Shown here one piece after another: positions 2,241-59,515 of a stretch of 64,000 bases of DNA; position 1 is the stretch's first letter; the number at the start of each line of letters is the position of its first letter. The notes below the pieces were generated by a model. The model had not been told where the DNA came from, ran no database searches, and saw only the letters and a program-made list of their open reading frames with translations. The stretch comes from an uncultured Bacteroidales bacterium (GTDB lineage: Bacteria > Bacteroidota > Bacteroidia > Bacteroidales > UBA7960), in assembly GCA_964349365.1 (NCBI GenBank), contig CAYGFY010000015.1, positions 5,166 through 69,165 on the forward strand, in the 5' to 3' direction. The position numbers and the translations under genes were made by a program.

Positions 2241-2386
2241 AGTGTTGAATGGGTTGATGTTTGGGTAAAAATTTTTTTAAACGGTTAACCCTTAAATATT
2301 TATACGCCATAAATAATCTTCTCAACACCTCAATCTTTTTCCGTTTTGCGAAATTAATATTAAATTTACGGCCAAAACCTACTTTT

Positions 2387-4608: not shown

Positions 4609-4625
4609 CTGTTAAACCTTGGTAA

Positions 4626-4758
4626 TCGAAATAATTGATGATTGGTAATAGTGATTAGTGATTGGTTATTTGCACGAGCAAAATGATCAAGAAAAAAAAT
4701 TACAGGCAGTAGGCAGTAATCTGCGAAAATTAGCGAGCCAATTTCAACCCGTTAATCA
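4626..4758. repeat. Intergenic word-repeat mosaic in the xdhA-xdhB spacer
   Basis: TCGAAATAATTG (4626-4637), GTGATTAGTGATTGG (4651-4665), GGCAGTA x2 (4705-4718), ATCTGCGAAAAT (4719-4730) and CGTTAATCA (4750-4758). The words and their order match 44748-44888. Confidence 0.7.
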
Positions 4759-4822
4759 AGTAAATCCGCAACCACCTGTTTTTGGTTTGTTAAATTACAC
4801 AAGAAATTTGTTTTTTTTCGAT

Positions 4823-32777: not shown

Positions 32778-32780
32778 TGC

Positions 32781-34013: not shown

Positions 34014-34018
34014 CTGGT

Positions 34019-42014: not shown

Positions 42015-43634
42015 CTAAAACCCCGGCAAATCCATCGTAACAGTAGGAATTAACAGCAAGGCTCCAAGAAAGGTTAAAAGAAGCACGAGAGGTAAAACCC
42101 ACCTTACCCATTTGTCGTATGGAATGCGTGCAACACCCAGTACCGCTATCAAAACCCCAGAAGTTGGGGTTATTAGGTTGGTGAATCCATCGCCAAATTG
42201 AAATGCCATAACAGTAGCTTGCCTCGAAATATCGATAAGGTCGCTAAAGGGAGCCATTATGGGCATCGTAATTGCCGCCTTGGCCGAACCACTTGGAATT
42301 ACAATGTTTATGATGGTTTGGATGAGGTACATTATTTGTACTGAGGCAATTTTTCCAAACTGACCCAAAGATTTTGAGAGGCTGTAAAGGATGCTGTCAA
42401 TAATGCCACCATTTTCAAGAATTACAACAATACCTGCTGCCAAACCAACCACCATTGCCGCCGAAACAATGTCTCGAACCCCTTCAACAAACAATTTTGC
42501 AATATCGTTGGCCGACTTGTTTACGGCCATACCGGCAAAAATACCCATTGCCAAAAACAGGGTGGCAATTTCCATAATGTACCAGTCGTATCCCATTACC
42601 CCAACGATCAGGTAAACAATTGTATAGCCCAGCAACAACAATATAAAGTAGTGTACTGATTTTTTGAGGGTAAGGTAGCCAAGAACCACGAATAATACAG
42701 TGAGTATTGGCATCAGCACGAAAGTACTTGACTTTTCTCCTATTTTTACAGTGGTTTCGGGATACAAGAAGGCAAATATACCCAAGACCAGGGTAACAAT
42801 TCCGAACGTTATCCATGCCATTTTTGGGGTGTAGTATTCAAAAGATTCGGCCTCTCCCTTGTCTCTTTCTCGCCAATATTCATCTTCACGATAAACCGAC
42901 GATTTCTGGGGGTTTTTTTTTATTTTGGCAACGTATCTCAACACGAATGAAATACCCAAAATGGTTATTAATATCCAACAAAAAGTCCTAAATTCGATTC
43001 CGGTAAACAATGGTATATCGGCAAGGCCTTGGGCAATACCCACGGTGAAGGGATTTAGCATGGCTCCTGCAAAACCAATAGCTGAACCGACGAAAACCAT
43101 TGCAACGCCCGTAATACTGTCGTATCCCATTGAAATGGCCAGCGGAACCAGTATTATGGTAAAGGCAATGGTCTCTTCGGCCATACCAAACACTGCTCCA
43201 AATAAGCTAAACAAGAGCATAACCAAGGCAATGATTAGGTTGTCAACCCCTACTTTCTTCATGAATTGGTTTTGTTCTAGCTTTCTCATGGATTGTAAAA
43301 ATGCCAGAATACCCACATCAATTGCCTTGGTGGTGTTCATTATCCAAAAAGCGCCACCTATTATAAGTATGAAAACGATTATTCCCGATTGTTTCTTGAA
43401 ACCATTGTAAATGGCCGACATTATCTGCCAGGTTTGAGGTTCGCTCTTGAATTGTGCCCGATGTGGTTCTGGAAGGTCGTCTTTGTAATAAAACTTCAGA
43501 ACTTCATTTTCGGTGCCATCAACCTTAATGGTTTCTTTTATAAACTTGCCAGGTTCGAAAACCCAGGTCATTGCAGCGGCAATAATAATTATGACGAAAA
43601 TTATCACGTATGTGTGGGGTACTTTCTTAAGCAT
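42015..43634 (-). CDS. yfcC: YfcC/DcuC-type anion (C4-dicarboxylate/peptide) permease family protein
   Basis: 539 aa and polytopic. The MLKKVPHTYVIIF N-terminus is typical of YfcC-family proteins as I recall them. Confidence 0.65.
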   Translation of the reverse strand: MLKKVPHTYVIIFVIIIIAAAMTWVFEPGKFIKETIKVDGTENEVLKFYYKDDLPEPHRAQFKSEPQTWQIMSAIYNGFKKQSGIIVFILIIGGAFWIMNTTKAIDVGILAFLQSMRKLEQNQFMKKVGVDNLIIALVMLLFSLFGAVFGMAEETIAFTIILVPLAISMGYDSITGVAMVFVGSAIGFAGAMLNPFTVGIAQGLADIPLFTGIEFRTFCWILITILGISFVLRYVAKIKKNPQKSSVYREDEYWRERDKGEAESFEYYTPKMAWITFGIVTLVLGIFAFLYPETTVKIGEKSSTFVLMPILTVLFVVLGYLTLKKSVHYFILLLLGYTIVYLIVGVMGYDWYIMEIATLFLAMGIFAGMAVNKSANDIAKLFVEGVRDIVSAAMVVGLAAGIVVILENGGIIDSILYSLSKSLGQFGKIASVQIMYLIQTIINIVIPSGSAKAAITMPIMAPFSDLIDISRQATVMAFQFGDGFTNLITPTSGVLIAVLGVARIPYDKWVRWVLPLVLLLTFLGALLLIPTVTMDLPGF

Positions 43635-43655: not shown

Positions 43656-44525
43656 CTATTTAACAATTTCAAAAATATCTCCCGGAAGAAAAACGTCAAG
43701 TGTAAGGTCGTACCCCCCAATTTTCTCGTTCAAGTCCTTTCTTGACTTTTTGGGGTTGCGGAAAACAATTACCTGAGAAACCCCCACAACTTCTGCAGTG
43801 TTCCCTTTTACCAAAATAGCCGTGGATTCGTCAATACCTATGCCCGGCAGTTCTGGATATTCCAATACTGCAGTAATTAGGCGGTTATGGCGGCTACGCC
43901 AAACAAAATGCTGGTCAATAATGGCCGTGCTTATCAATCCAAGTCCATCGGCAAGGTCAATATTCTCGTTTTCTATTACTCTGTAGGTTGGGGTGTATTC
44001 TTCGTGCCTTCCTTGGTCGCCGGTGATCATTTTTTGGCTCATCATTGCAGCACCTGCACTTGTCCCGGCAATCATTGCTCCGTTTTGGTAAGCGTCTTTA
44101 ATTGCCTGGTGGATTGGTGTGTTGCGAACAATCTCCATGAACCTCGACTGGTCGCCACCGCTTATGAAGATCAATGATGCCATGCTTAAAGAGTCAATCT
44201 TTATTGGGCAAACTGGTTTACCACTACTGAAGTTAAATCCTGATATCGCGGTTATTCCCTGGTTTAAAAATTGTTCTGATGACCAAAAAATTGCCGAATC
44301 TGGCACTTCGCTTGCCATTGGCAGTATTACAATGTAGCCACCGTCTTTAAGACCTGATTCTTCAATCATCCTTTCGGCAAGAATGTCGGGTCTGGGGCCA
44401 CCACCGATTATGAACAAAGAGCCGAGAGGCTCGCTTTCAATCACTTTTAGCTTTTCTGGCTTGCAGGAGGCGGCAACCAAGATAACCGCAATCATACCAA
44501 GCGAAAGTTTAATAAATTTTGGCAT
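43656..44525 (-). CDS. cphE: Cyanophycinase (peptidase S51), predicted lipoprotein
   Basis: Lipobox VAASC, and motifs IIGGG, ISGGDQ, the nucleophile elbow AGTSAGAAMM, IDQHFVWRSRHNRL and GIDESTA. Confidence 0.8.
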   Translation of the reverse strand: MPKFIKLSLGMIAVILVAASCKPEKLKVIESEPLGSLFIIGGGPRPDILAERMIEESGLKDGGYIVILPMASEVPDSAIFWSSEQFLNQGITAISGFNFSSGKPVCPIKIDSLSMASLIFISGGDQSRFMEIVRNTPIHQAIKDAYQNGAMIAGTSAGAAMMSQKMITGDQGRHEEYTPTYRVIENENIDLADGLGLISTAIIDQHFVWRSRHNRLITAVLEYPELPGIGIDESTAILVKGNTAEVVGVSQVIVFRNPKKSRKDLNEKIGGYDLTLDVFLPGDIFEIVK

Positions 44526-44608: not shown

Positions 44609-44612
44609 CTTG

Positions 44613-44686
44613 TAGCGGGAACGAGAGTTGAACTCGTGACCTTCGGGTTATGAATCCGACGCTCTAACCACCTGAGCTACCCCGCC
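44613..44686 (-). tRNA. tRNA-Met (anticodon CAT; elongator-like; Ile2-lysidine identity not excluded)
   Basis: The reverse complement is GGCGGGGTAGCTCAGGTGGTTAGAGCGTCGGATTCATAACCCGAAGGTCACGAGTTCAACTCTCGTTCCCGCTA. It folds as a cloverleaf with anticodon loop TTCATAA. Confidence 0.85.
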
Positions 44687-44968: not shown

Positions 44969-46492
44969 TTAATCAACATTATCGTGCAAGAAGGAGTTGT
45001 TAGACTTTATTTGTGTTTTATTTTCCGAGTCATCTGAGAGAGAATACCTTGAAACGTGCGATTCGGAGCTTGCTGGTACTGGTGAAAGATTTACGTTGCG
45101 TCTGAGATATGCCGGTTGGTTTTCGAGAGATTGGAGCCCATCGTGGGTCTTTACTTTCATGCTTAACTCCCTCAGCCTATTTTCACGTTCCTTGATCTTG
45201 TTGTTCAAGTCATCCTCTGTTATTAAATTTTCTTTGGTCAAAACTTGCCGGGGTGTTAGGTCAGGTGCTTTTTTGCTTGGTTCTGAGCTAAAACGCGAAC
45301 CAGGTATATGTGAGTTTTTTAGGTCGAACTCGAAAATGGTGCTTGTTTCTTCCCTAACCGGATTTTTGTTTTCAGTTTTTGAGGCTTGGGTGGGTCTTTC
45401 AATAACCCTGAATTCGAATTCATCATTTGTTGGAATTACTGTTTCGATGGTTCGTGGCTTTTGTGGTTCGCCTATAGTACCAACCCTTTTTATTTCTTTG
45501 TGTTTTTCACCAATGCTTTTTCCCATTGGAAAACCTGTTGCAACCAAGGTGACATTTATCTTTCTTCCCAGAGATGCATCTTTTCCGAGCCCCCAAATTA
45601 CTTCAGCCGTTCCGCCCGATTCTTCGATCAAGAGGTCGGTGATTTCGGTAATTTCATCCATTAATATTTCTTCCGAACCACTTGTAATGTTTAGCAATAT
45701 GTTTTCGGCCCCCCTAATGTTGTTATCGTTGAGAAGCGGGCTCGACAAGGCCTCCGATACCGCGTTGTTGGCCCTGTTTTCACCCTCGGCAGTTCCACTT
45801 CCCATTATTGCTACACCGCTGTTTGACATAACTGTTCTTACGTCAGCGAAGTCCACGTTTATATTACCAGGAATTGTTATAATCTCTGCAATTCCTTTGG
45901 CAGCTGTTGTTAGCACGTCGTCGGCCTTGCCGAAGGCCTCAGTAACTCCAAGGTTTCCGTAAAGTTCGCGAAGTCTGTCGTTGCTAATTATTAGCAACGT
46001 GTCAACGTGTTCTTGCATTTGCTTAATGCCATCCTCTGCCTGTTGCTTCCGCTTGCGTCCCTCGAAGTTGAATGGGATTGTAACTATCCCCACGGTAAGT
46101 ATTCCCAATTCTTTCGATATGCTTGCGATTACCGGGGCAGCGCCAGTTCCCGTTCCTCCACCCATTCCGGCGGTAATGAAAAGCATTTTCGTGCTTGGCT
46201 GCAGCAATTCTCGAATCCTATCAATATCCTCAAGAGCCGACTTCCTGCCAATTTCTGGAAGGTTGCCTGCCCCCCTTCCCTCGGTAAGATTTACCCCTAA
46301 TTGAACCTTGTTGGGTACCGGGCTAAGATCTAACGCCTGGCTGTCTGTATTGCAAACCACAAAGTCAACACCTTCAATTCCTTGCTTGTACATGTGGTTA
46401 ACGGCATTGCTGCCACCACCTCCAACGCCGAGAACTTTTATGATTGAAGACTTGTTTTTGGGTATATCGAAATCTAACATATCTGCTTTCAT
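44969..46492 (-). CDS. ftsZ: Cell division protein FtsZ
   Basis: Tubulin signature GGGTGTGAAPV. It has a long disordered linker and a C-terminal SFLHDNVD peptide. 507 aa. Confidence 0.95.
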   Translation of the reverse strand: MKADMLDFDIPKNKSSIIKVLGVGGGGSNAVNHMYKQGIEGVDFVVCNTDSQALDLSPVPNKVQLGVNLTEGRGAGNLPEIGRKSALEDIDRIRELLQPSTKMLFITAGMGGGTGTGAAPVIASISKELGILTVGIVTIPFNFEGRKRKQQAEDGIKQMQEHVDTLLIISNDRLRELYGNLGVTEAFGKADDVLTTAAKGIAEIITIPGNINVDFADVRTVMSNSGVAIMGSGTAEGENRANNAVSEALSSPLLNDNNIRGAENILLNITSGSEEILMDEITEITDLLIEESGGTAEVIWGLGKDASLGRKINVTLVATGFPMGKSIGEKHKEIKRVGTIGEPQKPRTIETVIPTNDEFEFRVIERPTQASKTENKNPVREETSTIFEFDLKNSHIPGSRFSSEPSKKAPDLTPRQVLTKENLITEDDLNNKIKERENRLRELSMKVKTHDGLQSLENQPAYLRRNVNLSPVPASSESHVSRYSLSDDSENKTQIKSNNSFLHDNVD

Positions 46493-46591
46493 TTTTTCAA
46501 GATTTAAAATTAGTCCTATTTTTGCTTGTTACTACTCATTTTTTCGAGTTTTTATTAACAGTTTTGCAACGTAATTGTTAATAAAATTTTT

Positions 46592-47863
46592 TTATTCTGG
46601 TTGATCCTTGTCAAAAAAATTCTCAATGCCCTGATTAAAGAGCCTTTTAAATATGTTTTCTTTAGGGGCTGTTTTTTTCTTTGCTGTCGTGTTTTTTTTG
46701 TTTAGGTTGGCGGTGTTGTTCAATCCTTGAATTACCAATCCTACTCCTGTTGCATGCATTGGGCTGCCGGTTTCGCCCGAAAGTGATTTTGCAAGGTGTT
46801 CGTTTGGATACCCGATACGTGTATCCATTCCGGTGAGGAAGGCAGTAAGTTGGGCCACGTGTTTCAGTTGGCTGCCCCCCCCGGTAAGTACAATTCCGGC
46901 AATCAACTTTTTTTCCAACCCCGAGTTTTTTAATTCGTAATGAACGTTTTCGATTATTTCTTCCATTCTTGCCTGAATAATGCTTGCAAGATTTTTAAGG
47001 GAAATTTCTTTTGTGCCTCTTCCCTTTAGTCCTGGAATTGAAACAACTTCTTCGTCGCGGTTTTCGCTTGCGAGTGCCGACCCGAAGCGTTTCTTTAGTT
47101 CTTCGGCTTGCGACTTTATTATTGAACACCCTTCTTTCACGTCGTCGGTTATTACGTTTCCGCCCAAGGGAATAACCGCCGTGTGCCTTATTATGTCATC
47201 CTTGAAAATTGCAATGTCTGTTGTTCCTCCGCCGATGTCAACCAATGCTACTCCGGCTTCCTTTTCCTCGCTGCTCAAAACCGCCTCTGCCGATGCTAAA
47301 GGCTCCAGGATAATTGATGAAATGGTGAGGCCTGCTTTGGATACGCACTTTTCGATGTTTTTTGCGGCGGCAACTTGCCCGGTAATAATGTGAAAGTTGG
47401 CCTCGAGCGTGATACCTGACATACCAACGGGGTGTCGGGTTCGCTGGTGGTTATCTATCAGGTACTCTTGCGGAATTACATGTATTATTTCTTCGCCAGG
47501 TGGCAGTACCAACTTGTGCATGTTTGCCGTGAGGGTCGATACGTCATCCTCGCTTATTTCATCATCGTTGTTATTGCGGGTGTAGCTGCCCTTATGTTGC
47601 AAGCTGCGAATGTGCTGACCGGCAATACCTACATTAACAATGTTGATGTCAACACCGGCAGTTTCGCTTGCTTGGTGCACGGCCTTTTTGATTGACTCAA
47701 CGGTGTGCTGGATGTTTTCCACCACGCCCCTGTTTACGCCAAGGGACTCGGATCGGCCTAACCCGAGAATTTCAACCTTTCCGTATTCATTTTTGCGGCC
47801 CACAATGCAGGCAATTTTTGTCGAACCAATGTCGAGGCCCACGATGTAATCTGAATTTGTCAT
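46592..47863 (-). CDS. ftsA: Cell division protein FtsA
   Basis: Actin-like ATPase motifs GLDIGSTKI and VDIGGGTTD. It lies between ftsQ and ftsZ. Confidence 0.9.
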   Translation of the reverse strand: MTNSDYIVGLDIGSTKIACIVGRKNEYGKVEILGLGRSESLGVNRGVVENIQHTVESIKKAVHQASETAGVDINIVNVGIAGQHIRSLQHKGSYTRNNNDDEISEDDVSTLTANMHKLVLPPGEEIIHVIPQEYLIDNHQRTRHPVGMSGITLEANFHIITGQVAAAKNIEKCVSKAGLTISSIILEPLASAEAVLSSEEKEAGVALVDIGGGTTDIAIFKDDIIRHTAVIPLGGNVITDDVKEGCSIIKSQAEELKKRFGSALASENRDEEVVSIPGLKGRGTKEISLKNLASIIQARMEEIIENVHYELKNSGLEKKLIAGIVLTGGGSQLKHVAQLTAFLTGMDTRIGYPNEHLAKSLSGETGSPMHATGVGLVIQGLNNTANLNKKNTTAKKKTAPKENIFKRLFNQGIENFFDKDQPE

Positions 47864-47870
47864 GGCATGG

Positions 47871-48662
47871 TTATTTTGAACATACTATTTGGTTTTTAAA
47901 TTGAAGGTTTATCTTGCCGTACTTGTCCCAACCTACTGTTGAAATGGCATTAAGGTAAAAGGTTTTCAACTTTTGAAATTTCTGCTCCATCCTGTCTATA
48001 GAACCGAATTCAACCACGTGGGCTCCATTTTTGGGTGTGAGTTCGAACCTGTTACCTGGTTTTACGTGTATGTAGTCAATAAATGCATTCCAAAATTTGT
48101 TTTGAGAAATGAAGTTTACCAGCTTGAATAGGTCGGCAAGCAATTTCTCGTTTGAGGTTGCATCTTTGGAGTTATTAACCTCGGTAAGGTCTAAATTGGT
48201 AGAGTAGCCAGAAAAAATATTTCCCCCGGCAATTACAACCCTTGCCGTGTAATTGTTGCTCAGGGGCATTGCCCTACCATCAACATCAATGTAATATCCG
48301 TGGTTGTGTGCAGTTACCACCCTGAAAAGTGGCACGCGTTGAGTTACCTCAACGTTCACATTTCCATCAATGGTTCTGTAAACACTTGATCTTTTAACCC
48401 AAGGGTTTTGGTTTACTACTTCTCTTATTTGCTTCAAAATTGAACCTCTTACAGGGTGGCCTTCAATGGAAGAAATTCTTTCCACGATTTCATTTTTTAG
48501 CCCTTCTGCATCAACAAATTGGTTTTCGTTTGAGTTTTGCACCGACACCATTAGTTGCAAGCACGGTTGTTTTTTGTTGCTGCTCACTGCAAATCCCAAT
48601 GCTGCCAATAACAATACAGGAACCAAGACAATAGGGGCAATATGTAAGGTCTTTCGAATCAT
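47871..48662 (-). CDS. ftsQ: Cell division protein FtsQ
   Basis: Single N-terminal TM helix plus POTRA-like region. The call rests mainly on its position between murC and ftsA. Confidence 0.7.
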   Translation of the reverse strand: MIRKTLHIAPIVLVPVLLLAALGFAVSSNKKQPCLQLMVSVQNSNENQFVDAEGLKNEIVERISSIEGHPVRGSILKQIREVVNQNPWVKRSSVYRTIDGNVNVEVTQRVPLFRVVTAHNHGYYIDVDGRAMPLSNNYTARVVIAGGNIFSGYSTNLDLTEVNNSKDATSNEKLLADLFKLVNFISQNKFWNAFIDYIHVKPGNRFELTPKNGAHVVEFGSIDRMEQKFQKLKTFYLNAISTVGWDKYGKINLQFKNQIVCSK

Positions 48663-50017
48663 TTTTGCTTGGTTTTCAGTGTTTTAACAATATCTGACAC
48701 CAATCTGTCAATGTCACCGGCACCGAGTGTAAGCAATAGTTCTTGGTTTCGATTCAACACGATTTCGAGCACTTCGGGGCGCGAGGCTAGTGTTTTGTTC
48801 GAAGAATTGATTTGGTCCAAAAGCCATCGGGATGTTATTCCCGGAATTGGTAATTCCCTTGCAGGGTAAATTTCCATGAGTATTATTTCGTCGGCCATTT
48901 CGAGGGCAGATGCGAAACCCCGGGCAAGGTCTCTTGTTCTGCTGTAAAGGTGGGGCTGAAATATTGCAGTAATCTTTTTTGATGGGTATAACTTCCTGCA
49001 GGCTTCGATGCAGGCCCTTATTTCTTCTGGATGATGGGCGTAGTCGTCGATGTAAGTTGTTAGCTGGTTTTCGAAACATTTTTCGAATCTTCGCTTGACT
49101 CCCGTGAAAGTTGAAATGCCTTTTGTAATGCTTTGCGAGTCAATGCCAATTGTGTGTGCAACCAAAGCAGCTCCTAATGCGTTTTCGAGGTTGTGGTTTC
49201 CGGGTAAACCTATTTCAAAAGAACCGCAAGCAAATACTCCGTTTATTGCCGCTTTTTGCTTGCCGTTTTCAGCCACAATGCTTGTTGCGAAAAGGTCGGC
49301 GGGGCCTTTGAGGCCGTAAGTTTTGGTTTTACCTTCGAACCCAACAAGTTTTTCCATTCCTTTTTTTAACACGAGGGTACCGTTAGGCCTGATACCCTGT
49401 GCGAATTTATTGAAACTCTCAACCATGGCATTTCGGGTTCCGTAAATGTCGAGGTGGTCGGCATCGAGAGAACTTATCAGGGCAATGTCGGGTTCAATAT
49501 GAAGGAACGATCTATCAAACTCGTCGGCTTCAACAATGGCCCATAGAGGGTTTGAATCGTTAATGTAATTTGTGTTGTAATTGGTGCATATTCCGCCGAT
49601 AAACGCGGTAATTTCGACTCCTGCAGTTTTTAGTATATGTGCTATCAAAGAACTTATCGTGGTTTTTCCGTGTGTTCCGGCGACAGCAATGGTTCTTTTT
49701 GGCTTCACCAATGCCCCTAACACCTCGGCTCTTTTAACGAAGGGTATGTTTCTTTCTTCAATTGTGCGGAAAAGTGTTAAAGTGCGTGGCACGGCGGGTG
49801 TGTAAATCACCAAATCTGTGTCCGTTGGCAAGATTTCAGCCATATCATCGAACCAAACCTCTATTCCCTCTTCTTGTATTTTTCTTGTTAAATCGGAGGG
49901 CGTTCTATCGTACCCGGCAACTTTCTTCCCAAGCGCGTGAAAGTGAAGGGCTAGGGCGCTCATACCTATGCCTCCAATTCCTAGGAAGAAAATGTTTTTA
50001 TGGCGGGCAAGGTTCAT
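48659..50017 (-). CDS. murC: UDP-N-acetylmuramate--L-alanine ligase
   Basis: IFFLGIGGIGMSALA and P-loop AVAGTHGKTT. 452 aa. Confidence 0.9.
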   Translation of the reverse strand: MNLARHKNIFFLGIGGIGMSALALHFHALGKKVAGYDRTPSDLTRKIQEEGIEVWFDDMAEILPTDTDLVIYTPAVPRTLTLFRTIEERNIPFVKRAEVLGALVKPKRTIAVAGTHGKTTISSLIAHILKTAGVEITAFIGGICTNYNTNYINDSNPLWAIVEADEFDRSFLHIEPDIALISSLDADHLDIYGTRNAMVESFNKFAQGIRPNGTLVLKKGMEKLVGFEGKTKTYGLKGPADLFATSIVAENGKQKAAINGVFACGSFEIGLPGNHNLENALGAALVAHTIGIDSQSITKGISTFTGVKRRFEKCFENQLTTYIDDYAHHPEEIRACIEACRKLYPSKKITAIFQPHLYSRTRDLARGFASALEMADEIILMEIYPARELPIPGITSRWLLDQINSSNKTLASRPEVLEIVLNRNQELLLTLGAGDIDRLVSDIVKTLKTKQK

Positions 50018-50019
50018 TG

Positions 50020-51162
50020 TTAAATTTTGTTCGCTATATCAATTGCAATGTCTGCAATAACATCTGCTGCATTGCGAAATGCTAAAGTTGATAGTTTTTC
50101 CTTAAGTTTTGATTGCTGTTTGCTATCCTTCACAAGTTCTACGATTGTTTGTCCGAGCAAATCGAAAGCATTTTTATCTTTTACCAACAATGCTGCATGG
50201 TGGTTAACCAAGGCTAATGCATTTTTTGTTTGGTGATCCTCTGCCACGTTTGGTGAGGGGATTAGGATAGCAGGTTTTTGGGTGGCGCAAATTTCGGAAA
50301 CCGCAATGGCACCAGCCCTACTTACCACGATGTTGGCGGCAGCATATGCATAATCCATTCTATTGATAAACTCCTTTACCACAACCCCTTTGTTAATGTT
50401 TTCAACCCTTTCGCAGGCCTTTTTGAAGTACCGGGATCCGGTTTGCCAAATAACCTGAATGTCGTTTTGGATCAAGTAATCAAGGTGTTGGTAAATGCTT
50501 TCGTTGATGGTTCTTGCGCCAAGGCTGCCGCCAGTTACCAGTACCACGGGCTTTAGCGGATCAAGGTTGAAGAACTCAAATGCCCCTGGTTGTTTCCCCT
50601 CGAGGTTTATCACGTCCTGCCTTACCGGGTTGCCCGTTAAGAGTATTTTTGACTTATCGAAAAACCTATCCATTCCCTCGTATGCAACACAAATTTTCGT
50701 AACTTTTTTTGCCAATAGTCTGTTTGTGAGCCCGGGATAAGAGTTTTGTTCTTGAATTAATGTGGGTATTCCCTTTTTGCTAGCCGCCCTTAAAATTGGC
50801 GCACTTGCATAGCCACCCACTCCTATAACCACGTTGGGTTTGAACTCCTTGATTATTTTTTTTGCCCTCAATAGGCTTTGCATAAGCATGAATGGAACCT
50901 TCAGGTTTTTTAGCGTAAGCCTTCGCTGAATTCCGGCAATGTTCAAGCCTATAATATCGAAGCCTGCTTCGGGTACTTTTGTCATTTCCATTTTCCCGTT
51001 GGCTCCCACGAAAAGAATTTTGACATCCTTCACCTTGGTTTTCAGCGACCTTGCAATTGCAATGGCAGGAAAAACATGGCCACCGGTACCTCCCCCGGCT
51101 ATTATTATCTTAAGCCCTTCAGCCTGTGGCAACTGGTTGTTCATTTGTCTTGGGTTCTTCAA
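50020..51162 (-). CDS. murG: UDP-GlcNAc:lipid I N-acetylglucosaminyltransferase
   Basis: GGGTGGHVFPAIA motif. The start is either 51162 or 51144; both overlap the ftsW 3' end. Confidence 0.9.
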   Translation of the reverse strand: MKNPRQMNNQLPQAEGLKIIIAGGGTGGHVFPAIAIARSLKTKVKDVKILFVGANGKMEMTKVPEAGFDIIGLNIAGIQRRLTLKNLKVPFMLMQSLLRAKKIIKEFKPNVVIGVGGYASAPILRAASKKGIPTLIQEQNSYPGLTNRLLAKKVTKICVAYEGMDRFFDKSKILLTGNPVRQDVINLEGKQPGAFEFFNLDPLKPVVLVTGGSLGARTINESIYQHLDYLIQNDIQVIWQTGSRYFKKACERVENINKGVVVKEFINRMDYAYAAANIVVSRAGAIAVSEICATQKPAILIPSPNVAEDHQTKNALALVNHHAALLVKDKNAFDLLGQTIVELVKDSKQQSKLKEKLSTLAFRNAADVIADIAIDIANKI

Positions 51163-52270
51163 TTTTTCTACTTACGCTCAATATGATTCCGATGGAAATG
51201 CTGGTAAACCAAAGCGAAGTTCCGCCCATGCTTACCAGTGGAAGGGGTTGTCCGGTGACGGGTATAATTCCCACGTTAACTGCCATATTTATCATTGCCT
51301 GGAAAACCAGGCTAAAACTTAGCCCTACTGCCAGCAATGCCCCAAAGGTGCCGGGGCTGTTTCGAGCCACCCTTATTCCCCTGTAAAAGAGTATCAGGTA
51401 AAGAAGCAACACTGCCATTCCTCCAATTAATCCATATTCTTCGATTATAATGGCATAAACGAAATCGCTAAAAGGATTTGGCAAGAAGTTTCTTTGAGTT
51501 GAGTTGCCCGGGAGGTTTCCAAAAATTTTGCCAGAGGCAATTGCAATTTTTGATTGTTCCAATTGGTACTGGTCTCCGGATTTGTCGAGATGTCTTTCAA
51601 TCCTGCTTTTCCATGTTCCTATTCTTCCCTTGTCGGGCAAGGCAGAAGCAAGCATCATTATTATCAAAAAAACGGCCAAACCTGCCCCTATTAAACCCAA
51701 AACGTATCTTATTTTGACACCACCCACAAACATTAGAATAACGCAGGTTGAAAAAAGCAAGGCCGCCGTTGAAAGGTTTGCGGGAAGTATCAGGCCAGTA
51801 ATGATAACCGCCGGGACAAGTATTGGTATAAAGCTTTGATTAAAGTCGCCAATGTTATCTTGTTTTTTTGTTAACATCCTTGCAACGAATATTATCAATG
51901 CCAGTTTTGCGAAGTCGGAAGTTTGGAAACTAAGATTGATTACCGGCAGTGTGATCCAACGATTAGCTTCGTTAATGGTAGGCCCCTTTACAAGGGTAAG
52001 CAGCAATAGTGGCACGGCAATCCAGATTGCAATTTGCGACAACCGGGAGTAGTACGTGTATTTTATCCTGCTGGCCAAAAACATTAGCCCTAATCCAAAA
52101 GTAAGTATAACAAAGTGTTTCAGTAGGTAGTATTCCGTGTTTCCTCCACGTTTTGCATATGCAAGCGTTCCGGTTGAACTATACACTGCAAGCAGCGAAA
52201 TGATGGACAGCAAGAACACCACCATCCATATTACCCTATCACCCTTTATTTTATCTGCAATGACTTTCAT
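51119..52270 (-). CDS. ftsW: FtsW/SEDS family peptidoglycan polymerase
   Basis: 10-TM SEDS pattern with C-terminal PLPLVSMGGTS. Its position in the dcw cluster supports the call. Confidence 0.85.
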   Translation of the reverse strand: MKVIADKIKGDRVIWMVVFLLSIISLLAVYSSTGTLAYAKRGGNTEYYLLKHFVILTFGLGLMFLASRIKYTYYSRLSQIAIWIAVPLLLLTLVKGPTINEANRWITLPVINLSFQTSDFAKLALIIFVARMLTKKQDNIGDFNQSFIPILVPAVIITGLILPANLSTAALLFSTCVILMFVGGVKIRYVLGLIGAGLAVFLIIMMLASALPDKGRIGTWKSRIERHLDKSGDQYQLEQSKIAIASGKIFGNLPGNSTQRNFLPNPFSDFVYAIIIEEYGLIGGMAVLLLYLILFYRGIRVARNSPGTFGALLAVGLSFSLVFQAMINMAVNVGIIPVTGQPLPLVSMGGTSLWFTSISIGIILSVSRKIEEPKTNEQPVATG

Positions 52271-52285
52271 TAATGACTTGAGCCT

Positions 52286-52864
52286 TTAGAGGTTTAAAAC
52301 TATTTTTTTGAACTGTTTTCCCCTTTCTTCGTAGTTTTCGAACAGGTCAAAACTTGCACAGGCCGGCGAAAGTAAAACCGAATCTCCAGGGCTTGCGGCA
52401 AGGTAAGCCGATTTTACGGCATCTTCCATCGAACGGGTTTCGAAAATCAGGTGAATTTTTTTTTCAAATGATTTTATTATCTTGTGGTTGTTTTTTCCCA
52501 GGCAAATGATTGCCTTAACTTTTTTGGCAACCAGGTCGGCAATTTGTTCGTAATCGTTGCCAGGCTCTTGTCCTCCGGCAATCCAAACAATTGGTTTGTT
52601 TACCGACTCGAGGGCGTACCATGCTGAGTTTAGATTTGTTGCTTTGCTGTCGTTAATAAACTCCACGCCTCTTACAAAGGCAATACTCTCGAGCCTGTGC
52701 TCTTCTTTCAAAAATCCCGAAAGACCTTCCCTTATTGATTTCTTGCGCAGGTCGGAAAGCCTGCCAGCGATTCCGGCCGCCATGCTGCCATAAATGTTCT
52801 GGCTTGTAAAATTTTCGCCGAGTGTTGCTACTCTTTTATTACCAGGTGATTCAAACTTTATCAT
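52286..52864 (-). CDS. murD: MurD C-terminal fragment only (192 aa): N-terminal Rossmann domain and ATP-binding central domain absent; possible pseudogene or stand-alone domain
   Basis: Contains EHRLESIAFVRGVEFINDSKATN and ..LSPACASFDLFENYEERG (Mur ligase C-domain). There is no GxxGKT P-loop. The ATG at 52864 is immediately preceded by an in-frame TAA (52867-52865) and lies 12 nt after the mraY stop. Confidence 0.8.
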   Translation of the reverse strand: MIKFESPGNKRVATLGENFTSQNIYGSMAAGIAGRLSDLRKKSIREGLSGFLKEEHRLESIAFVRGVEFINDSKATNLNSAWYALESVNKPIVWIAGGQEPGNDYEQIADLVAKKVKAIICLGKNNHKIIKSFEKKIHLIFETRSMEDAVKSAYLAASPGDSVLLSPACASFDLFENYEERGKQFKKIVLNL

Positions 52865-52876
52865 TTAGTTGTCCTT

Positions 52877-54139
52877 TTATCTAAGTTTTAGTGTAATTAT
52901 GCTCATTACGGCAAGCAATATTCCAACAATTAAAAACCTAAGTACTATTTTGGCTTCGTGGTACCCTTTCATTTGATAGTGATGGTGCAGGGGAGCCATC
53001 AAGAAGATTCTCTTTCCTTCGCCAAATCGTTTTTTGGTTATCTTGAACCAACCCACTTGCAAAATCACCGAAAGGCTTTCGATGAAGAATACACCGCAAA
53101 GAATTGGAATCAGTAGTTCTTTTTTTATAACAATTGCGAAGACCGCTATTATTCCTCCAAGTGTTAGGCTGCCCGTATCGCCCATAAACACTTGAGCGGG
53201 GTACGAGTTGTACCACATGAAACCGATGCAGGCGCCCACAAATGCTCCCATGAAAATCACCAGTTCTCCAGTGAAGGGTATGTACATTATGTTCAGGTAA
53301 TTTGCAAAAACTATGTTACCCGAGACGTATGCAAGTATTCCGAGTGTTACACCGATTATTGCAGATGAACCGGTGGCCAATCCATCGAGCCCATCTGTCA
53401 TGTTTGCCCCGTTCGAGACGGCCGTGATTATTAATATAACAATCGGAATGAAAATCAAGAACGCCCACTGGCTATATCCCTCTCCCAGGAATCTTAGGAA
53501 TATTGCGTAATCGAATTCGTTATTTTTGAAAAACGGGATGGTTGTTTTTGTGGATTTTTTAGTTTCGAAAGTTTGCCTTGTTGATTGCTCGGCACTAGGC
53601 GAATCGCCGCTAATCATAATTTCGGTGGCACTTTCGAATTGCATTGGAAGTTTTGGTCTTTCGCGAATTACCACGGATTCGTGGAAATATAATGTAGTGC
53701 CAACTATCAACCCCAGCGAAATTTGTCCTAAAATTTTGAATTTTCCGTGCAATCCTCTTTTATCCTTCCTGAAAACTTTTATGTAATCGTCCAGAAAACC
53801 AAGAATGCCAAGCCAAATGGTCGAAACAAGCATTAGTATTATGTAAATGTTGTCAACTTTAGCAAACAGGAGGGTGGGTATAACTATTGAAGCAATAATA
53901 ATAATTCCGCCCATTGTTGGGGTTCCCTTTTTTTGAATTTGTCCGTCAAGCCCAAGGTCGCGTATATCCTCGCCAACTTGCTTCTTGCGCAGGTAGTCAA
54001 TAATTCTCCTACCGAACACCATTGAAATAACCAACGAGAGTATTATTGCTATTCCGGTTCTGAACGAGATGAATTGAAATACACCCGTTCCGGGAATGTC
54101 AAATGTTTTGTTCAAGTATTCGAAAATGTAATACAGCAT
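52877..54139 (-). CDS. mraY: Phospho-N-acetylmuramoyl-pentapeptide transferase
   Basis: [21 protein letters not shown] and APLHHH motifs. 420 aa. Confidence 0.95.
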
Positions 54140-54160
54140 GTACGTTATTTCAAATTAGTT

Positions 54161-55618
54161 TTACAAGAATTCCCCCAGTACCATTTTGTCGTCAAAGGGA
54201 TGCTTTACTCCCCTAATTTCTTGGTATTTCTCGTGCCCTTTCCCCGCAACCAAAATTATGTCCCCGTTGTTTGATATTGCACAAGCCGTTTTTATTGCCT
54301 CCAGCCGGTTTGTTATCGCTATTGTTTTCCTTTTTTGCAAGGGGTCTAAACCAGCCACCATTTCTTGGATTATCTGGTCCGGATCCTCGAAGCGAGGATT
54401 GTCGGACGTGATAATCACCTTGTTGCTTAATTTAGCAGCAATTGCCGCCATTTTTGGTCTTTTATCTGCATCGCGATTTCCTCCGCATCCTACTACCGTA
54501 ATAATTTGTTCGTTTCCCGATCTGATTTTATTGATGGTTTCCAACACGTTTTCAATTGCATCGGGGGTGTGGGCGTAATCAACAATGCCCATTTTGTTGC
54601 CCTTTCCCTTCAACACTTCAAACCTTCCCTCGGCCGGTCCAATTGCGGTTAGGTGCAACAATGCCATTTCACCGGGCAGGCCCAACATTGCCGCTGCAGC
54701 GTAAGCAGCCATTATGTTATACGCATTGAACTCTCCTGTAAGCCGTTGCCAGGTTTCCTTGCCGTCGATTAGCATCTGTAATCCTGCAAAGCTGTTTTCG
54801 ATAATCTTTCCCTTGAAATCGGCAAATGTTTTCAAGCTATAGGTTTTAACTGTCGCTTTGCAGTTTTGCACCATTACGCTTCCGTTTTTGTCGTCGATGT
54901 TTATTATGGCGAATGCCTTTGAATCGAGATTGTCGAAGAAAGCCTTTTTTGCCTTGAGGTATGCTTCGAATGTAATATGGTAGTCTAAGTGGTCATGAGT
55001 TAAATTGGTGAATATTCCACCCACAAACCTTACTCCCGCTATCCTTTGCTGATCAACGGCATGTGAACTAACTTCCATGAAGACATATTTGCATCCGTTT
55101 TCTACCATTTCGGCCAAAAGTCCGTTGAGAGCTTTTGGGTCGGGGGTTGTGAACTTTGATTCGATTTGCCGGTTGCCGATTAGGTTTTTTATGGTGGAAA
55201 TAAGGCCGCATTGGTAACCTGCCTCAGTAAATAGTTTGTGGAGCATTGAGGCCACCGTGGTCTTTCCATTAGTTCCCGTAACTCCAACTACTTGAATCTT
55301 TTCAGATGGGTTGCCGAAAAAGTTTGACGCAATGATACCCAATGCTTTTTTTGAGCACCTAACCATTGCATAAGTTACCCCTTTTGAAAGTTGCCCTGGC
55401 AATTTCTCGCAAACCACCGATTTGGCGCCATTGGCAATAGCTTGATTTATAAAGTCGTGGCCATCGGAGTTAAGACCTTTTACGGCAACAAACAATCCAT
55501 TCTTGGCCACTTTTCGAGAGTCTGAATCGAAGTTGGAGATGCCCCTATCGGTGTTGCCACTGGTTTGCAACAACTCGACCTTGTATAGTATGTCTCTTAA
55601 TGTTATCACCGTTGGCAA
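54161..55618 (-). CDS. murE: UDP-MurNAc-L-Ala-D-Glu:meso-diaminopimelate ligase
   Basis: P-loop GVTGTNGKTT and the DAP-specificity motif SDNPR. 485 aa. Confidence 0.9.
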   Translation of the reverse strand: MPTVITLRDILYKVELLQTSGNTDRGISNFDSDSRKVAKNGLFVAVKGLNSDGHDFINQAIANGAKSVVCEKLPGQLSKGVTYAMVRCSKKALGIIASNFFGNPSEKIQVVGVTGTNGKTTVASMLHKLFTEAGYQCGLISTIKNLIGNRQIESKFTTPDPKALNGLLAEMVENGCKYVFMEVSSHAVDQQRIAGVRFVGGIFTNLTHDHLDYHITFEAYLKAKKAFFDNLDSKAFAIINIDDKNGSVMVQNCKATVKTYSLKTFADFKGKIIENSFAGLQMLIDGKETWQRLTGEFNAYNIMAAYAAAAMLGLPGEMALLHLTAIGPAEGRFEVLKGKGNKMGIVDYAHTPDAIENVLETINKIRSGNEQIITVVGCGGNRDADKRPKMAAIAAKLSNKVIITSDNPRFEDPDQIIQEMVAGLDPLQKRKTIAITNRLEAIKTACAISNNGDIILVAGKGHEKYQEIRGVKHPFDDKMVLGEFL

Positions 55619-57721
55619 TTAGTTTAAAACAATGGAAGCGTGCCCGCCAGAAAGTATCTTGGTGCCGGCTCTCGGGGTTTGCTCCCTGACAACACCTCGC
55701 CCGGAGAACGAAACCCTAAGGCCTGAATTCTCCAAAAGGTAAATTGCATCGCGCAAGCCCATCCCCGATACATCGGGCACTAGATTTGGGATCAGCTCTT
55801 TTGTTTTCAGGGTAACGGTGTCGCCAATTACCCTTGCCGTTGCCCACTTCCCGGTTACCTCGCCTTGTATTTTGGGACCGAATAATTTATAAATCTCCCT
55901 GATATCTGCATGATTGCCTTGCCTTATAATAGGTATGGTTGCCGAAAGAACTTCTTGTTGGTCACTTAGTTTTGGTTCAATATGCGTGGCAAAAACTTTT
56001 GCCGCAATTTCCTTAAACGGAGGCGCGGCCACTGCACCACCAGTGTAGCCTGCGCTCCTGGGGTTGTTTATCATCACAATGCAACTGTATTTGGGGTTGT
56101 CGGCCGGAAAGAAACCCACGAAAGAAGACCTGTACGAAGTCCTTCCATCGAGGCTCCTATATCCATCTCTTTGGTTTGCCACTTGGGCAGTACCTGTTTT
56201 TCCGGCAATTGAGAAGTGGTTTGACCTGATGCCCTTTGCAGTTCCGTTTTCAACAACTCCAACCAGAAGTTCGATAGCCTTCTCGATTGTTGAGGGGCTA
56301 GCGATACGTTTTTTGATTACTTGCGGATGAAACCTTTTGATTGTTTTTCCTGTTTGCCTAATCTCTTCAACGAAAATTGGTTTCACGAGCTTGCCTTGGT
56401 TTGCAACGGCATTGTAAAAGGCCAAAGTTTGCAGGGGGGTCAAGGCAACTTCGTATCCTATTGACATCCACGGTAATGAAACCGCCGACCAAGTAAGACT
56501 GCCCGGGCCTTTTAGAATTGGTTTGCCTTCGCCAGATATTTCCAGGTCGAGTGTGTTGCCAAGTCCGAAGGACTTCAGTCGATCAACAAATTTTTGTGGG
56601 CTGCCTTTGTAGGCTTGGTCAATAAGCATTGAAGTGCCCACATTTGATGATAATTCAAAGACTTGATTAACGGATAGGGTTCCGTGCCCACCTGGCTTTA
56701 CATCTCTCATAATTCGATTTGAATAGCGTCTGGTACCATTTGCCGTGGGTACTTCTTGATTGAAATCTATTTTCCCGTCTTCGATGAGGGCCATCATGCT
56801 TGCAAGCTTAAATGTTGACCCGGGTTCTGCTGCCTCGGCTATGGCATAATTGAACGTTTCTTCGTAACCTCCCGATTGGGTTTTAGTTAGGTTTGAAATT
56901 GCCTTTACCTTACCGGTACTTACTTCCATCAATATTGCAACGCCAAAGTCGGCATTTGAGGCAACGAGTTGCCTGAGCAAGGCGTTCTCCACAATGTCTT
57001 GGAGGTTTATGTTTATGGTGGTAATAAGGTCTTGACCGTTTTCGGGTTTTATTTCTTCGCTGTCGTTAATTGGAAACCAATTACCCGCTGGGCCTCTTTG
57101 CATCAATCTTTTTCCCTGCCTTCCTTCGAGAAATTTCCTGAATGAACCTTCGAGTCCGACATAAACCCCTTCGCGTTCGTACCCTATAGTTCGCGCCGCC
57201 ATGGTGCGGTAGGGCATTTCCCTTCTTGACCCCTCAACGGGAATAAGACCACCCTTGCGACCACGCCTGAAAATGGGAAGTTCTCTAACTTGTTGGAGCT
57301 GATGGTAAGAAACATTCCTCTTTAAAAGATAGTAGCGAAGTTGTTGTTGCCTTACGCTTCTTAATATCCTTAAATAGTCTGACCTGTCGCGATCCCCAAA
57401 AATCCTTGATAGCCCCAAGGCCAGCGAATCAACGCCTCTGTTAAAGACTTCGTCGCTTACAACTCCTTTTGAAAGATCTATTCTTAACTCGTAATTTGGT
57501 ATGCTTGTTGCCAAGAAACTCCCGTCATCGGCACATATGTTTCCCCTAATGGCATTGACGGTTTCGTAGCGCAGGGTGGCATTTCTTTGTCTTTCTCTCC
57601 AATATTCTCCTTCTACAAATTGTATTTTAACAATTTCAACCACGATGTATAGGGCAGCAAATACCATGGCCAGGTACAACCACGAAACTCTTCTTACTAT
57701 GTGTTTATTCGTGTCCATCAA
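55619..57721 (-). CDS. ftsI: Penicillin-binding protein 3-like transpeptidase with C-terminal PASTA domain
   Basis: SxxK (GSTFK), SxN (SSN) and KTGT motifs. It has an N-terminal TM helix and a PASTA-like tail (VPDVSGMGLRDAIYLLENSGL). Confidence 0.9.
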   Translation of the reverse strand: MMDTNKHIVRRVSWLYLAMVFAALYIVVEIVKIQFVEGEYWRERQRNATLRYETVNAIRGNICADDGSFLATSIPNYELRIDLSKGVVSDEVFNRGVDSLALGLSRIFGDRDRSDYLRILRSVRQQQLRYYLLKRNVSYHQLQQVRELPIFRRGRKGGLIPVEGSRREMPYRTMAARTIGYEREGVYVGLEGSFRKFLEGRQGKRLMQRGPAGNWFPINDSEEIKPENGQDLITTININLQDIVENALLRQLVASNADFGVAILMEVSTGKVKAISNLTKTQSGGYEETFNYAIAEAAEPGSTFKLASMMALIEDGKIDFNQEVPTANGTRRYSNRIMRDVKPGGHGTLSVNQVFELSSNVGTSMLIDQAYKGSPQKFVDRLKSFGLGNTLDLEISGEGKPILKGPGSLTWSAVSLPWMSIGYEVALTPLQTLAFYNAVANQGKLVKPIFVEEIRQTGKTIKRFHPQVIKKRIASPSTIEKAIELLVGVVENGTAKGIRSNHFSIAGKTGTAQVANQRDGYRSLDGRTSYRSSFVGFFPADNPKYSCIVMINNPRSAGYTGGAVAAPPFKEIAAKVFATHIEPKLSDQQEVLSATIPIIRQGNHADIREIYKLFGPKIQGEVTGKWATARVIGDTVTLKTKELIPNLVPDVSGMGLRDAIYLLENSGLRVSFSGRGVVREQTPRAGTKILSGGHASIVLN

Positions 57722-57734
57722 GTCAAAAAACCCC

Positions 57735-58115
57735 TTAGTTGAAAATCCTCCTTAGAAATCCCTTCGAATTATTTTCGTCATAAATCCTTGTGGGTGGCAC
57801 CGTGGAGGGTTTTATGCCTCTTGTTGCCAGCCTTTGCACTAAATCAGACTGGTTGGTAATACGCATCAATTCCGATCTTGTGAGTTTCTGTTTTATGCGC
57901 AACTCAGCAATTTCGGCCTTTGCCCGTTCAACACTTCTCGAGTTTCGTTCGGCCACGTAAGTATTGCCAATTAAAAGTGTTCCGGTGAAAGCCAAGAAAA
58001 TGAAAAATGGAATTGCCTTGACAATGCTTCCTCGGGCCAAAATGGAGCCATCCAATATCGATTTCAGGGTCGTACCGGTTTTTTTTCCAACTTTTTTCAT
58101 CTTAGAAATTGCCAT
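57735..58115 (-). CDS. ftsL: FtsL-like small bitopic division protein
   Basis: One TM helix followed by a coiled-coil segment, located between rsmH and ftsI. ATG 58115 is preferred over 58208, which would overlap rsmH by 62 nt. Confidence 0.55.
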   Translation of the reverse strand: MAISKMKKVGKKTGTTLKSILDGSILARGSIVKAIPFFIFLAFTGTLLIGNTYVAERNSRSVERAKAEIAELRIKQKLTRSELMRITNQSDLVQRLATRGIKPSTVPPTRIYDENNSKGFLRRIFN

Positions 58116-58146
58116 TTTCTGGTTTTTTGCCTTTGTCTTGATATTA

Positions 58147-59058
58147 TTAACCAGTTCTTTTTTCGGCAACACGTAAAACTGCACTCCGTGCCCTGCTATT
58201 TTTTTCAATTTCGGCTTGATTGGCCATTGTTTTTTTGCCCACAGGCGCCAAAGGTGTTATTGGGTTTCCGAAAAAGTCTTTTTCCAGTATTCCTTCAAAG
58301 TTGCCTGCCTTCATGAAGTTTTTAATCAGCCGGTCTTCGAGCGAATGGTATGAAATAACCACTAATCTTCCGCCCGGCCTCAACACCTCCGTGCTTTGCA
58401 GCAAAAATTCCTTTAGTGCCTCCAACTCGTTGTTGACTTCGATGCGCAATGCCTGAAAAACTTTTGCCATAAATTTGTTTTCCTTGCCTCGTTGCGAGTG
58501 CCTTACCAAGAGATCCTTGAGGTGGCCGGTGGTTTCGATCCTTTTTATTGCCCTTTGCCTTACAAGTGTTTTTGCCAAGATTTTTGCGTTTGGCAGCTCG
58601 CCGTAATTCTTGAGAATTTGAATAAGCCTTTCTGGCGCGTAATCATTAACGATGGCAGAGGCCGTAAGTGCCGCGTTTTTGTCCATCCTCATATCCAAAG
58701 GGCCATCAAACCGGGTAGAAAAGCCCCTTTCGGGCACATCGAACTGGTATGACGAGACTCCAAGGTCGGCCAATATTCCATCAACCGGAAGCAACCCAAA
58801 AAGTTTCAGGAAGTTTTTCATGAATCTGAAATTGTGGCCGAAGAACACCATCCGGTCATCATCTGGCTTGTTTGCTTCGGCCTCCACGTCTTGGTCAAAT
58901 GCAACGAGCTTACCACCAGTGAGTTTTTCAAGAATTAGGCGCGAATGACCCCCGCCTCCAAACGTGGCATCAACAAATACCCCGCCGTGAGTAACAGAGA
59001 GACCTTCAATGGCTTCACTTGCCAAAACGGGGATGTGATATGCATTCTTAGTCGTCAT
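58147..59058 (-). CDS. rsmH: 16S rRNA (cytosine1402-N4)-methyltransferase
   Basis: HIPVL, DATFGGGGHS and GVSSYQFD motifs. 303 aa. Confidence 0.95.
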   Translation of the reverse strand: MTTKNAYHIPVLASEAIEGLSVTHGGVFVDATFGGGGHSRLILEKLTGGKLVAFDQDVEAEANKPDDDRMVFFGHNFRFMKNFLKLFGLLPVDGILADLGVSSYQFDVPERGFSTRFDGPLDMRMDKNAALTASAIVNDYAPERLIQILKNYGELPNAKILAKTLVRQRAIKRIETTGHLKDLLVRHSQRGKENKFMAKVFQALRIEVNNELEALKEFLLQSTEVLRPGGRLVVISYHSLEDRLIKNFMKAGNFEGILEKDFFGNPITPLAPVGKKTMANQAEIEKNSRARSAVLRVAEKRTG

Positions 59059-59515
59059 TACTTGTTGGCGAAATTTTTCCCATTACCTCCTCGGCAAGTG
59101 CCGAAAAATCGTCAGGTTCGGTCTCCATTATTGATTGGTAAACATCTTTTGCCCATATTTCAATTTTGTGCCCGTATGCGAAAAGAATAATGTCGTTGTG
59201 AATACCGGCGTGTTCGAGCAATGATTTTGGCATTAAGAGCCTTCCCATCGAATCGGGTATTATTTCGGTTGCCCCCCTGAAAAAGTACCTTGCAAAATCG
59301 CGGTTCTTTTTCACGAAAGTGTTAAGAGAGTTTACCTCCTTCGAAATCTTTTGCCATTCGCTATCGGGGTAGAGCGTAAGGCTTCTTTCAAAACCACGAT
59401 TTACCACGAACCTCTCGAGGTCGCTGTTCGAAAGTTGCTTCTTCAACCCAGCTGGCAACAAAAAGCGGCTTTTGGGGTCAATCCGGCACTCGAATTCTCC
59501 AATCAAGGGGTTCAT
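59048..59515 (-). CDS. mraZ: Transcriptional regulator MraZ
   Basis: Duplicated SpoVT/AbrB-like halves (RFLLPAGLKK / RLLMPKSL). It is the first gene of the dcw cluster. 155 aa. Confidence 0.9.
   Translation of the reverse strand: MNPLIGEFECRIDPKSRFLLPAGLKKQLSNSDLERFVVNRGFERSLTLYPDSEWQKISKEVNSLNTFVKKNRDFARYFFRGATEIIPDSMGRLLMPKSLLEHAGIHNDIILFAYGHKIEIWAKDVYQSIMETEPDDFSALAEEVMGKISPTSNDD

Follow-up and report, generated by a model that had tools for sequence, protein, structure and literature searches.

The window, by which we mean the whole 64-kb stretch of DNA that was analysed and not the short murD alone, carries a dcw cluster whose genes are listed in Table 1. Between mraY (stop at 52877) and ftsW, the usual position for MurD in the dcw cluster, there was only an ORF of 192 aa, which the initial annotation had read as roughly the C-terminal part of MurD. 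This reading was borne out, as the NCBIfam profile TIGR01087 (murD) aligned only at its positions 275–440 of 441. The spacer downstream of the mraY stop was AAGGACAACTAA, with an in-frame TAA as its final codon and the ATG next. Direct reading of the junction thus agreed with the earlier statement that the ATG at 52864 stands right after an in-frame TAA and that the 12-nt gap has no room for the missing codons. All of the dcw neighbours of the short murD were normal in length and in Pfam domains, as had been claimed for the adjacent mur and fts genes. The MraY of the window was 71–73% identical to the MraY of relatives with a full-length MurD, and base composition was uniform across the junction of mraY and the short murD. 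The only three-domain Mur ligases encoded in the window were MurE and MurC.

Table 1. Coordinates of the dcw cluster and of the parts of the short murD in the window.
Feature	Coordinates	Strand	Description or basis
Whole dcw cluster, mraZ to ftsZ	44969..59515	minus	typical Bacteroidota, otherwise complete
mraZ	59515..59048	minus	
rsmH	59058..58147	minus	
ftsL	58208..57735	minus	
ftsI	57721..55619	minus	
murE	55618..54161	minus	
mraY	54139..52877	minus	intact, 420 aa, directly upstream of short murD; Pfam Glycos_transf_4 + MraY_sig1
12-nt spacer, mraY stop to short murD start	52865..52876	minus	read directly
Short murD, 192-aa ORF + stop	52864..52286	minus	ORF calling, sequence
Short murD, codons 1–20	52805..52864	minus	poorly conserved N-terminal tail, remnant of domain-2 β-hairpin, predicted disordered
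Short murD, codons 21–55	52700..52804	minus	last helix of central domain + hinge
Short murD, codons 56–192	52289..52699	minus	MurD domain 3
ftsW	52270..51119	minus	intact, 383 aa, directly downstream of short murD; Pfam FTSW_RODA_SPOVE, 3.2e-78
murG	51162..50020	minus	
murC	50017..48659	minus	
ftsQ	48662..47871	minus	
ftsA	47863..46592	minus	
ftsZ	46492..44969	minus	

Several other features were observed in the window. Directly downstream of ftsZ were tRNA-Met (44612–44686), a peptidase S51 gene (43656–44525) and a DcuC/AbgT-type transporter gene (42015–43634). One gene run on the minus strand (29778–36179) encoded a HAD hydrolase, a short-chain dehydrogenase, a FAD_binding_4 oxidase and a UbiA prenyltransferase, together with two large multi-pass membrane proteins of 556 and 410 aa without Pfam matches. 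We take this run to resemble a pathway of the decaprenyl-phospho-arabinose type (UbiA, DprE1-like and DprE2-like) followed by GT-C-like transferases. To our knowledge, such a run would be unusual in a Bacteroidales genome. A molybdoenzyme cluster of the xanthine dehydrogenase family (MobA-like protein, XdhC, FAD/2Fe-2S subunit and molybdopterin subunit) was found at 1545–7144 and in L175; its large subunit had 828 aa, and another assembly of this organism has it called as 773 aa.

Domain content and residues of the short protein

Pfam identified Mur_ligase_C alone in the 192-aa ORF (1.3e-14), and the PF02875 (Mur_ligase_C) model was covered end to end (positions 1–127 of 127) at residues 56–169. 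With PF02875 as the sole domain in an ORF of its own, the product is a stand-alone Mur_ligase_C protein. The UDP-binding and ATP-binding domains of a three-domain MurD were absent, and neither the ORF nor the 12-nt spacer contained a GxxGKT/S P-loop, in agreement with the initial annotation, which had described the UDP-MurNAc-binding domain and the ATP P-loop as missing. The TIGR01087 alignment scored 170.2 bits, which is below the cut-off of 211.95 for the full enzyme. The C-terminal domain was of the MurD type, with values of 8e-50 for TIGR01087 versus 2.7e-4 for MurF, and the short MurD shared 55–64% identity with the C-halves of MurDs from dcw clusters.

Positions in MurD are numbered as in E. 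coli through an alignment to PDB 1e0d. Residues 22–192 of the short protein were orthologous to MurD residues 267–437, and the start of the protein fell in the last β-hairpin of the central domain. What the short protein retains of MurD is the complete domain 3, preceded by the hinge and the last central-domain helix. In the AlphaFold2 model, residues 1–26 were a disordered tail (pLDDT about 35), residues 22–52 were a low-confidence helix, and domain 3 was a confident α/β domain (pLDDT 80–96). The 33 best Foldseek matches of this model in the PDB were all MurD domain 3, with an rmsd of 1.6–5.2 Å over 139–148 columns. Judged by its sequence, the 192-aa product is MurD-derived, and we were able to show that the short gene arose where it stands, when the dcw-cluster murD lost roughly its first 255 codons.

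Individual sites were compared at 61 columns conserved in at least 95% of 140 full-length orthologues, with seven truncated loci whose context was read. H267, present in 100% of the full-length orthologues, was replaced in all seven truncated loci (Q22 in the window), while N271, present in 99%, was replaced in six of the seven (G26 in the window), and N268 was retained as N23 in the window. The initial annotation had pointed to TSQNIYG in place of G-x-H-N-x-x-N and had suggested relaxed constraint on this segment, and both observations held in the alignment. It had overlooked K348, the charge partner of the D-Glu α-carboxylate, which is Pro101 here. K348 was present in 99% of the full-length orthologues and was replaced in four of the seven truncated loci (the window, L164, L166 and L167); it was retained in L002, L168 and L125. 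The replacements were P, P, N, T and N in the window clade, N in L167 and, in addition to the seven loci, H in L171 (P0097), whose context was also read.

The residues kept were H301, R302, E304, N316, D317, S318, K319, T321, N322, G344, G345, S415, D417, R425 and G426, and the lone exception among them was K319R in P0097. The hinge residues H56/R57 (H301/R302) come right after codon 55, and the NDSKATN motif (N316–N322) was kept in the window protein. R302 has been described as a handle driving the rotation of domain 3. In MurD, ADP is contacted by N271, R302 and D317, and D-Glu is contacted by T321, K348, S415, L416 and F422 (PMC9780078). Position 348 is K or R in MurD/MurD2 and helps to set glutamate recognition (PMC8788868). 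Among these ligand contacts, R302, D317, T321 and S415 were kept in the window protein, N271 was Gly and K348 was Pro, and positions 416 and 422 were F and Y, as in 100% and 96% of full-length Bacteroidia orthologues, respectively. This pattern suggests that the active-site face and the hinge of domain 3 are still needed, and that the helix from the central domain is probably no longer used for adenine binding. In the window clade, the canonical contact with the D-Glu α-carboxylate is predicted to be gone.

Maintenance and recurrence of the short gene

All of the loci were read from metagenome assemblies. The identical 192-aa protein was found on at least ten independent contigs (Logan, ENA and NCBI). 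When the mraY–ftsW interval was compared with that of relatives, as the initial annotation had proposed, the layout of mraY, 192-aa ORF and ftsW was shared by L164 (NCBI MAG GCA_964624065.1) and L166 (JGI), in which the short MurD was 78% and 72% identical and MraY was 89% and 85% identical, respectively. The spacers after mraY in these two loci were 9–11 nt. The dN/dS of the short murD among the window, L164 and L166 was 0.07–0.10, at a dS above 1.4, which is saturated, and it was on par with that of murE, ftsI and murG. Codons 1–20 were variable in the alignment and relaxed (dN/dS 0.32–0.54), and codons 21–55 and 56–192 gave 0.05–0.11, with 0.06 for codons 21–55. Frame and start codon were conserved across the clade at 72–84% protein identity. 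In relative-rate tests, the C-piece evolved only 1.02–1.28 times faster than in full-length sister taxa, and no compensating acceleration of MurC, MurE, MraY, FtsW, MurG or FtsI was found in the truncated lineages. The protein clusters of true short forms contained short members only. The ORF at 52864..52286 is a real and old gene that selection has maintained, and its product is a MurD domain-3 protein standing alone. Neither the strong purifying selection on the remnant nor the independent recurrence of the same truncation in several lineages had been foreseen in the initial annotation.

The gene order of mraY, an ORF with Mur_ligase_C only, and ftsW was also found in L002 (P0039, on a 407-kb JGI contig), L167 (P0022, Logan), L168 (P0088, ENA) and L171 (P0097, JGI), whose short proteins had 182, 182, 182 and 188 aa and whose spacers after mraY were 23, 57, 45 and 3 nt, respectively. 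L125 carried a 182-aa form preceded by an unrelated gene. A neighbour-joining tree was calculated from FtsI, MurE, MraY, FtsW and MurG (2318 columns, 200 bootstrap replicates). L167 was placed within the clade of the full-length L004 and L062, and L002 with the full-length L081 and L102, each with 100% bootstrap support. The window clade was sister to a clade containing full-length taxa, inside a group supported at 100%, and monophyly of the truncated taxa of the window's group had 0% bootstrap support. With the truncated loci standing beside full-length sisters, this sequence-based tree shows at least four independent truncations in related uncultured Bacteroidales, namely in the window clade (with or without L171), L167, the L002 clade and L168.

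Every 182-aa form started at the Met of E. coli position 256, which was Met in 130 of the 140 full-length Bacteroidia MurDs, so any deletion ending upstream of it leaves a ready-made start codon. Leftovers of the deleted 5' part were sought in the spacers, and nothing above chance was found. The truncated form is rare. Two collection scans with the short protein, of GTDB genomes and of JGI/ENA metagenomes, listed almost only full-length MurD at 54–64% identity, and the window's own clade was not among the matches listed. Nearly all of the 160 loci listed by these scans were full-length (about 445 aa), the exceptions being contig-end cuts, the frameshifted L130 and the short form L125. That the truncation recurs within a single broad group may point to a shared background that enables it, e.g., a pre-existing second gene.

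Some look-alikes were set apart from the true short forms. Dozens of entries for a "182-aa MurD" among the protein database matches P0006–P0120 were rejected as gene-calling fragments from the internal Met256, because most of them keep GKHN-x-YN and their clusters include longer members. The residue at position 267 is diagnostic: true short forms are without H267, and 182-aa entries with an intact GKHN-x-YN are fragments. L170 (JGI 3300076001 Ga0645781_21686; P0021, 199 aa) was rejected as a truncated lineage, as it comes from a noisy and probably long-read assembly, rich in frameshifts, in which the whole dcw cluster is broken into ORFs of 30–160 aa. In L003 (5607–6948) and L130 (64–1370), a full-length murD was split by a single frameshift into overlapping ORFs of 150 + 315 aa and 97 + 341 aa, respectively; these frameshifts are probably sequencing errors and a second source of apparently short MurDs. 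In L177 (P0432; ENA ERZ23498480 scaffold_460829, 1100–1148), an N-part ORF of 270 aa was followed 9 nt later by ATG ACA, the frame being broken by TAG and TAA in an insertion of about 30 nt immediately upstream of Met256 and 15 nt from the contig end. Its sibling P0468 (447 aa, at least 90% identity) was intact. L177 may represent either a genuine adjacent split allele or an error at the contig end, and it was set aside as an unreliable case of an adjacent split murD, since the stops lie in an insertion by the contig end and the sibling is intact. Some of the short forms carry the NCBI name "cyanophycin synthetase".

Candidate partners and possible roles

The missing part of MurD was searched for in the window and beyond it. 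tBLASTn with a MurD N-half over the 64 kb gave weak matches to MurE and MurC only, a six-frame regex search over the same 64 kb for a further Mur-ligase P-loop returned MurE and MurC only, and Pfam found no MurD N-terminal domain in 37 further ORFs across the window or in ftsQ, ftsL and murG. The earlier statement that the window holds no other MurD N-terminus was thereby confirmed. No Mur ligase was found in the 8.5–10 kb past each window end, where an ORF of 453 aa had no Pfam match on record and no tBLASTn similarity to MurD N-halves and was unrelated by eye. No MurD N/M domain was found within 6–10 kb of the five other truncated loci whose flanks were sufficiently long. No natural N-only MurD was found among the best 120 matches of each of two N-half profile searches, with profiles of 12 sequences and of 4 sequences from the window's own group, or among the best 150 of 1.84 billion cluster representatives searched with an N+M fragment. 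The short matches in these N-half searches were contig-end fragments, frameshifts or chimeras, and the lists were dominated by ordinary MurDs, which makes them a weak test of absence. Full-text searches of the literature turned up no account of a MurD that is truncated or split in nature.

We infer that the 192-aa protein alone cannot ligate, as it is without the UDP-MurNAc-binding domain, the P-loop, the Mg sites and the carbamylated lysine. Because the short protein is no ligase while murC, murE, mraY, murG, ftsW and ftsI are intact, either a Mur-ligase core is needed elsewhere or the step is done differently. The D-Glu step would accordingly depend on a core of N-terminal and central domains encoded outside the window. 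The best explanation, which we hold with middling confidence on the residue pattern, is that the short protein is a trans-acting domain-3 protein dependent on such a core. As a trans-acting lobe, it would act on a separately encoded, ATP-loaded Mur-ligase core. It would dock onto the central domain of its partner through the hinge (H301/R302) and the NDSKATN, GG and SPACASFD loops, and the docked lobe would close or regulate the active site. The partner would carry its own adenine-binding H-N-x-x-N helix and a complete central domain, since H267 and N271 are free to vary in the remnant.

For the window clade we weighed two versions of this explanation; the initial annotation had named a second full-length murD elsewhere and a split gene among its own candidates, and both are still plausible. 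A complete second MurD may catalyse, with the short protein as a ligand-binding accessory or regulator; this version, which the additional loss of K348 favours, comes close to an even prospect. A two-piece MurD, whose partner is without a working C-domain, is possible but rather doubtful. Several points speak against a trans-acting domain 3. No partner was found in the regions and lists searched, the loss of N271 and K348 argues against a canonical catalytic role for the protein of the window clade, and at least four independent origins are hard to square with repeated duplication and complementary loss.

The main rival, which overlaps with the version of a complete second MurD above, holds that a complete second murD elsewhere catalyses and that the remnant was repurposed non-catalytically without docking on a ligase core, for example as a sensor of UDP-MurNAc-peptide or of a nucleotide, or as a scaffold joining Mur enzymes to MraY/FtsW. 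The convergent loss of H267 and N271, the loss of K348 in three of the lineages that make up the window's group and the failure to detect an N-only partner among the matches listed would all fit such a change of role, for which reuse of the fold also has a precedent, since a MurE-like subunit of plastid RNA polymerase was among the matches of the model (8qma_O, 8r6s_Q). However, nearly all of the other residues facing the active site of domain 3 are invariant (the R302 handle, D317/K319/T321/S415), none of which a pure scaffold would need, and a second murD was not seen in the window and its flanks. We consider this rival unlikely, though it deserves serious weight. That a non-homologous or other Mur-family enzyme adds D-Glu or a preformed peptide, with the remnant serving the new route, would account for the lack of a MurD N/M domain in the roughly 84 kb surrounding the locus and for the recurrence of the truncation, which suggests a shared enabling background. 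But murC and murE are both intact and show no acceleration, which makes for an ordinary-looking stepwise pathway, and the known alternative, MurD2/MurL, still has a full-length MurD homologue; this route is improbable.

Decay and artefact carry far less weight. A pseudogene left by a recent deletion would explain the change of three otherwise invariant residues and the relaxation of the first 20 codons, but dN/dS is low over codons 21–192 at saturated dS, an intact ORF of equal length is present in the window, L164 and L166, frame and start are conserved in the clade, the rate is nearly unchanged, and four or more independent lineages have retained the ORF, which leaves decay highly improbable. 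The initial annotation had also listed a strain-specific deletion, which is refuted because the truncated form is older than a clade that differs by 22–28% in protein and has saturated synonymous sites. Its further proposal of an assembly collapse fared no better. The many internal-Met entries and the frameshift-ridden L170 show that such errors occur, yet the same junction was present on at least ten contigs from different assemblers and projects and in diverged relatives, an analogous case (L002) lies on a 407-kb contig, base composition is uniform at the junction, and the clusters of true short forms have short members only. An artefact of assembly or gene calling, with about 750 bp collapsed, is hardly credible, and even taken together pseudogene and artefact are very improbable.

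Beyond the trans-acting domain-3 protein preferred here for the window, we tentatively propose a wider reading, in which several uncultured Bacteroidales lineages would have converged on a multi-polypeptide MurD whose free domain 3 closes on or regulates a separate core. The form of the window clade would then be a novel type of regulator or adaptor for peptidoglycan precursors, without the canonical adenine and D-Glu contacts. In a radical variant of this reading, there would be no MurD-type core and the step would be carried out by an undescribed enzyme.

Comparison with known systems and meaning of the finding

The short protein shares with full-length MurD the fold, the hinge, the domain-3 motifs and the position between mraY and ftsW, but it is without domain 1 and almost the whole of domain 2 (UDP site, P-loop K115, E157, H183 and K198). 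In architecture, profile score and two ligand contacts, it falls short of what defines a MurD enzyme. The closest functional analogies are MurT/GatD and the plastid MurE-like subunit. MurT/GatD is similar in that a Mur-family module depends on another polypeptide in contact with its C-terminal domain, and it gave a weak fold match (6h5e). However, MurT is without the N-domain only and keeps the central ATP domain, whereas the short MurD keeps the reverse part. The plant protein PAP11, a MurE-like subunit of the plastid-encoded RNA polymerase complex and the source of the fold matches 8qma_O and 8r6s_Q, shows a Mur-ligase fold in a role outside peptidoglycan and, as far as is known, is non-catalytic; unlike the short MurD, it is eukaryotic, MurE-derived and part of a transcription complex. 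Natural fusions such as MurE-MurF and MurC-Ddl show that Mur gene architecture is plastic within dcw clusters (PMC10214165). The known changes of Mur architecture are such gene fusions, whereas the short MurD is a loss or fission that left one domain. MurD2/MurL is a documented different organisation of the D-Glu step, in which position 348 decides glutamate recognition (PMC8788868). In contrast to the short protein, MurD2 is full-length with three domains, and the MurD2/MurL route has been reported only in some Proteobacteria and Actinobacteria and not in Bacteroidota. MurD2/MurL was rejected as an explanation on taxonomy and architecture.

The significance of the short murD turns on the gene content of the remaining genome. 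Annotation pipelines label the short proteins "MurD" or "cyanophycin synthetase", and pathway reconstructions from MAGs would wrongly include the D-Glu step. MurD, long a target for antibiotics, is regarded as an essential enzyme made of one chain with three domains. Its mechanism rests on domain 3 closing as a rigid body over the ATP-binding domain. Domain 3 as a free protein, preserved by selection in several independent lineages, would be a natural experiment on such closure between separate polypeptides, or else it raises the question of a second, ligase-independent role of domain 3 in the division and cell-wall machinery.
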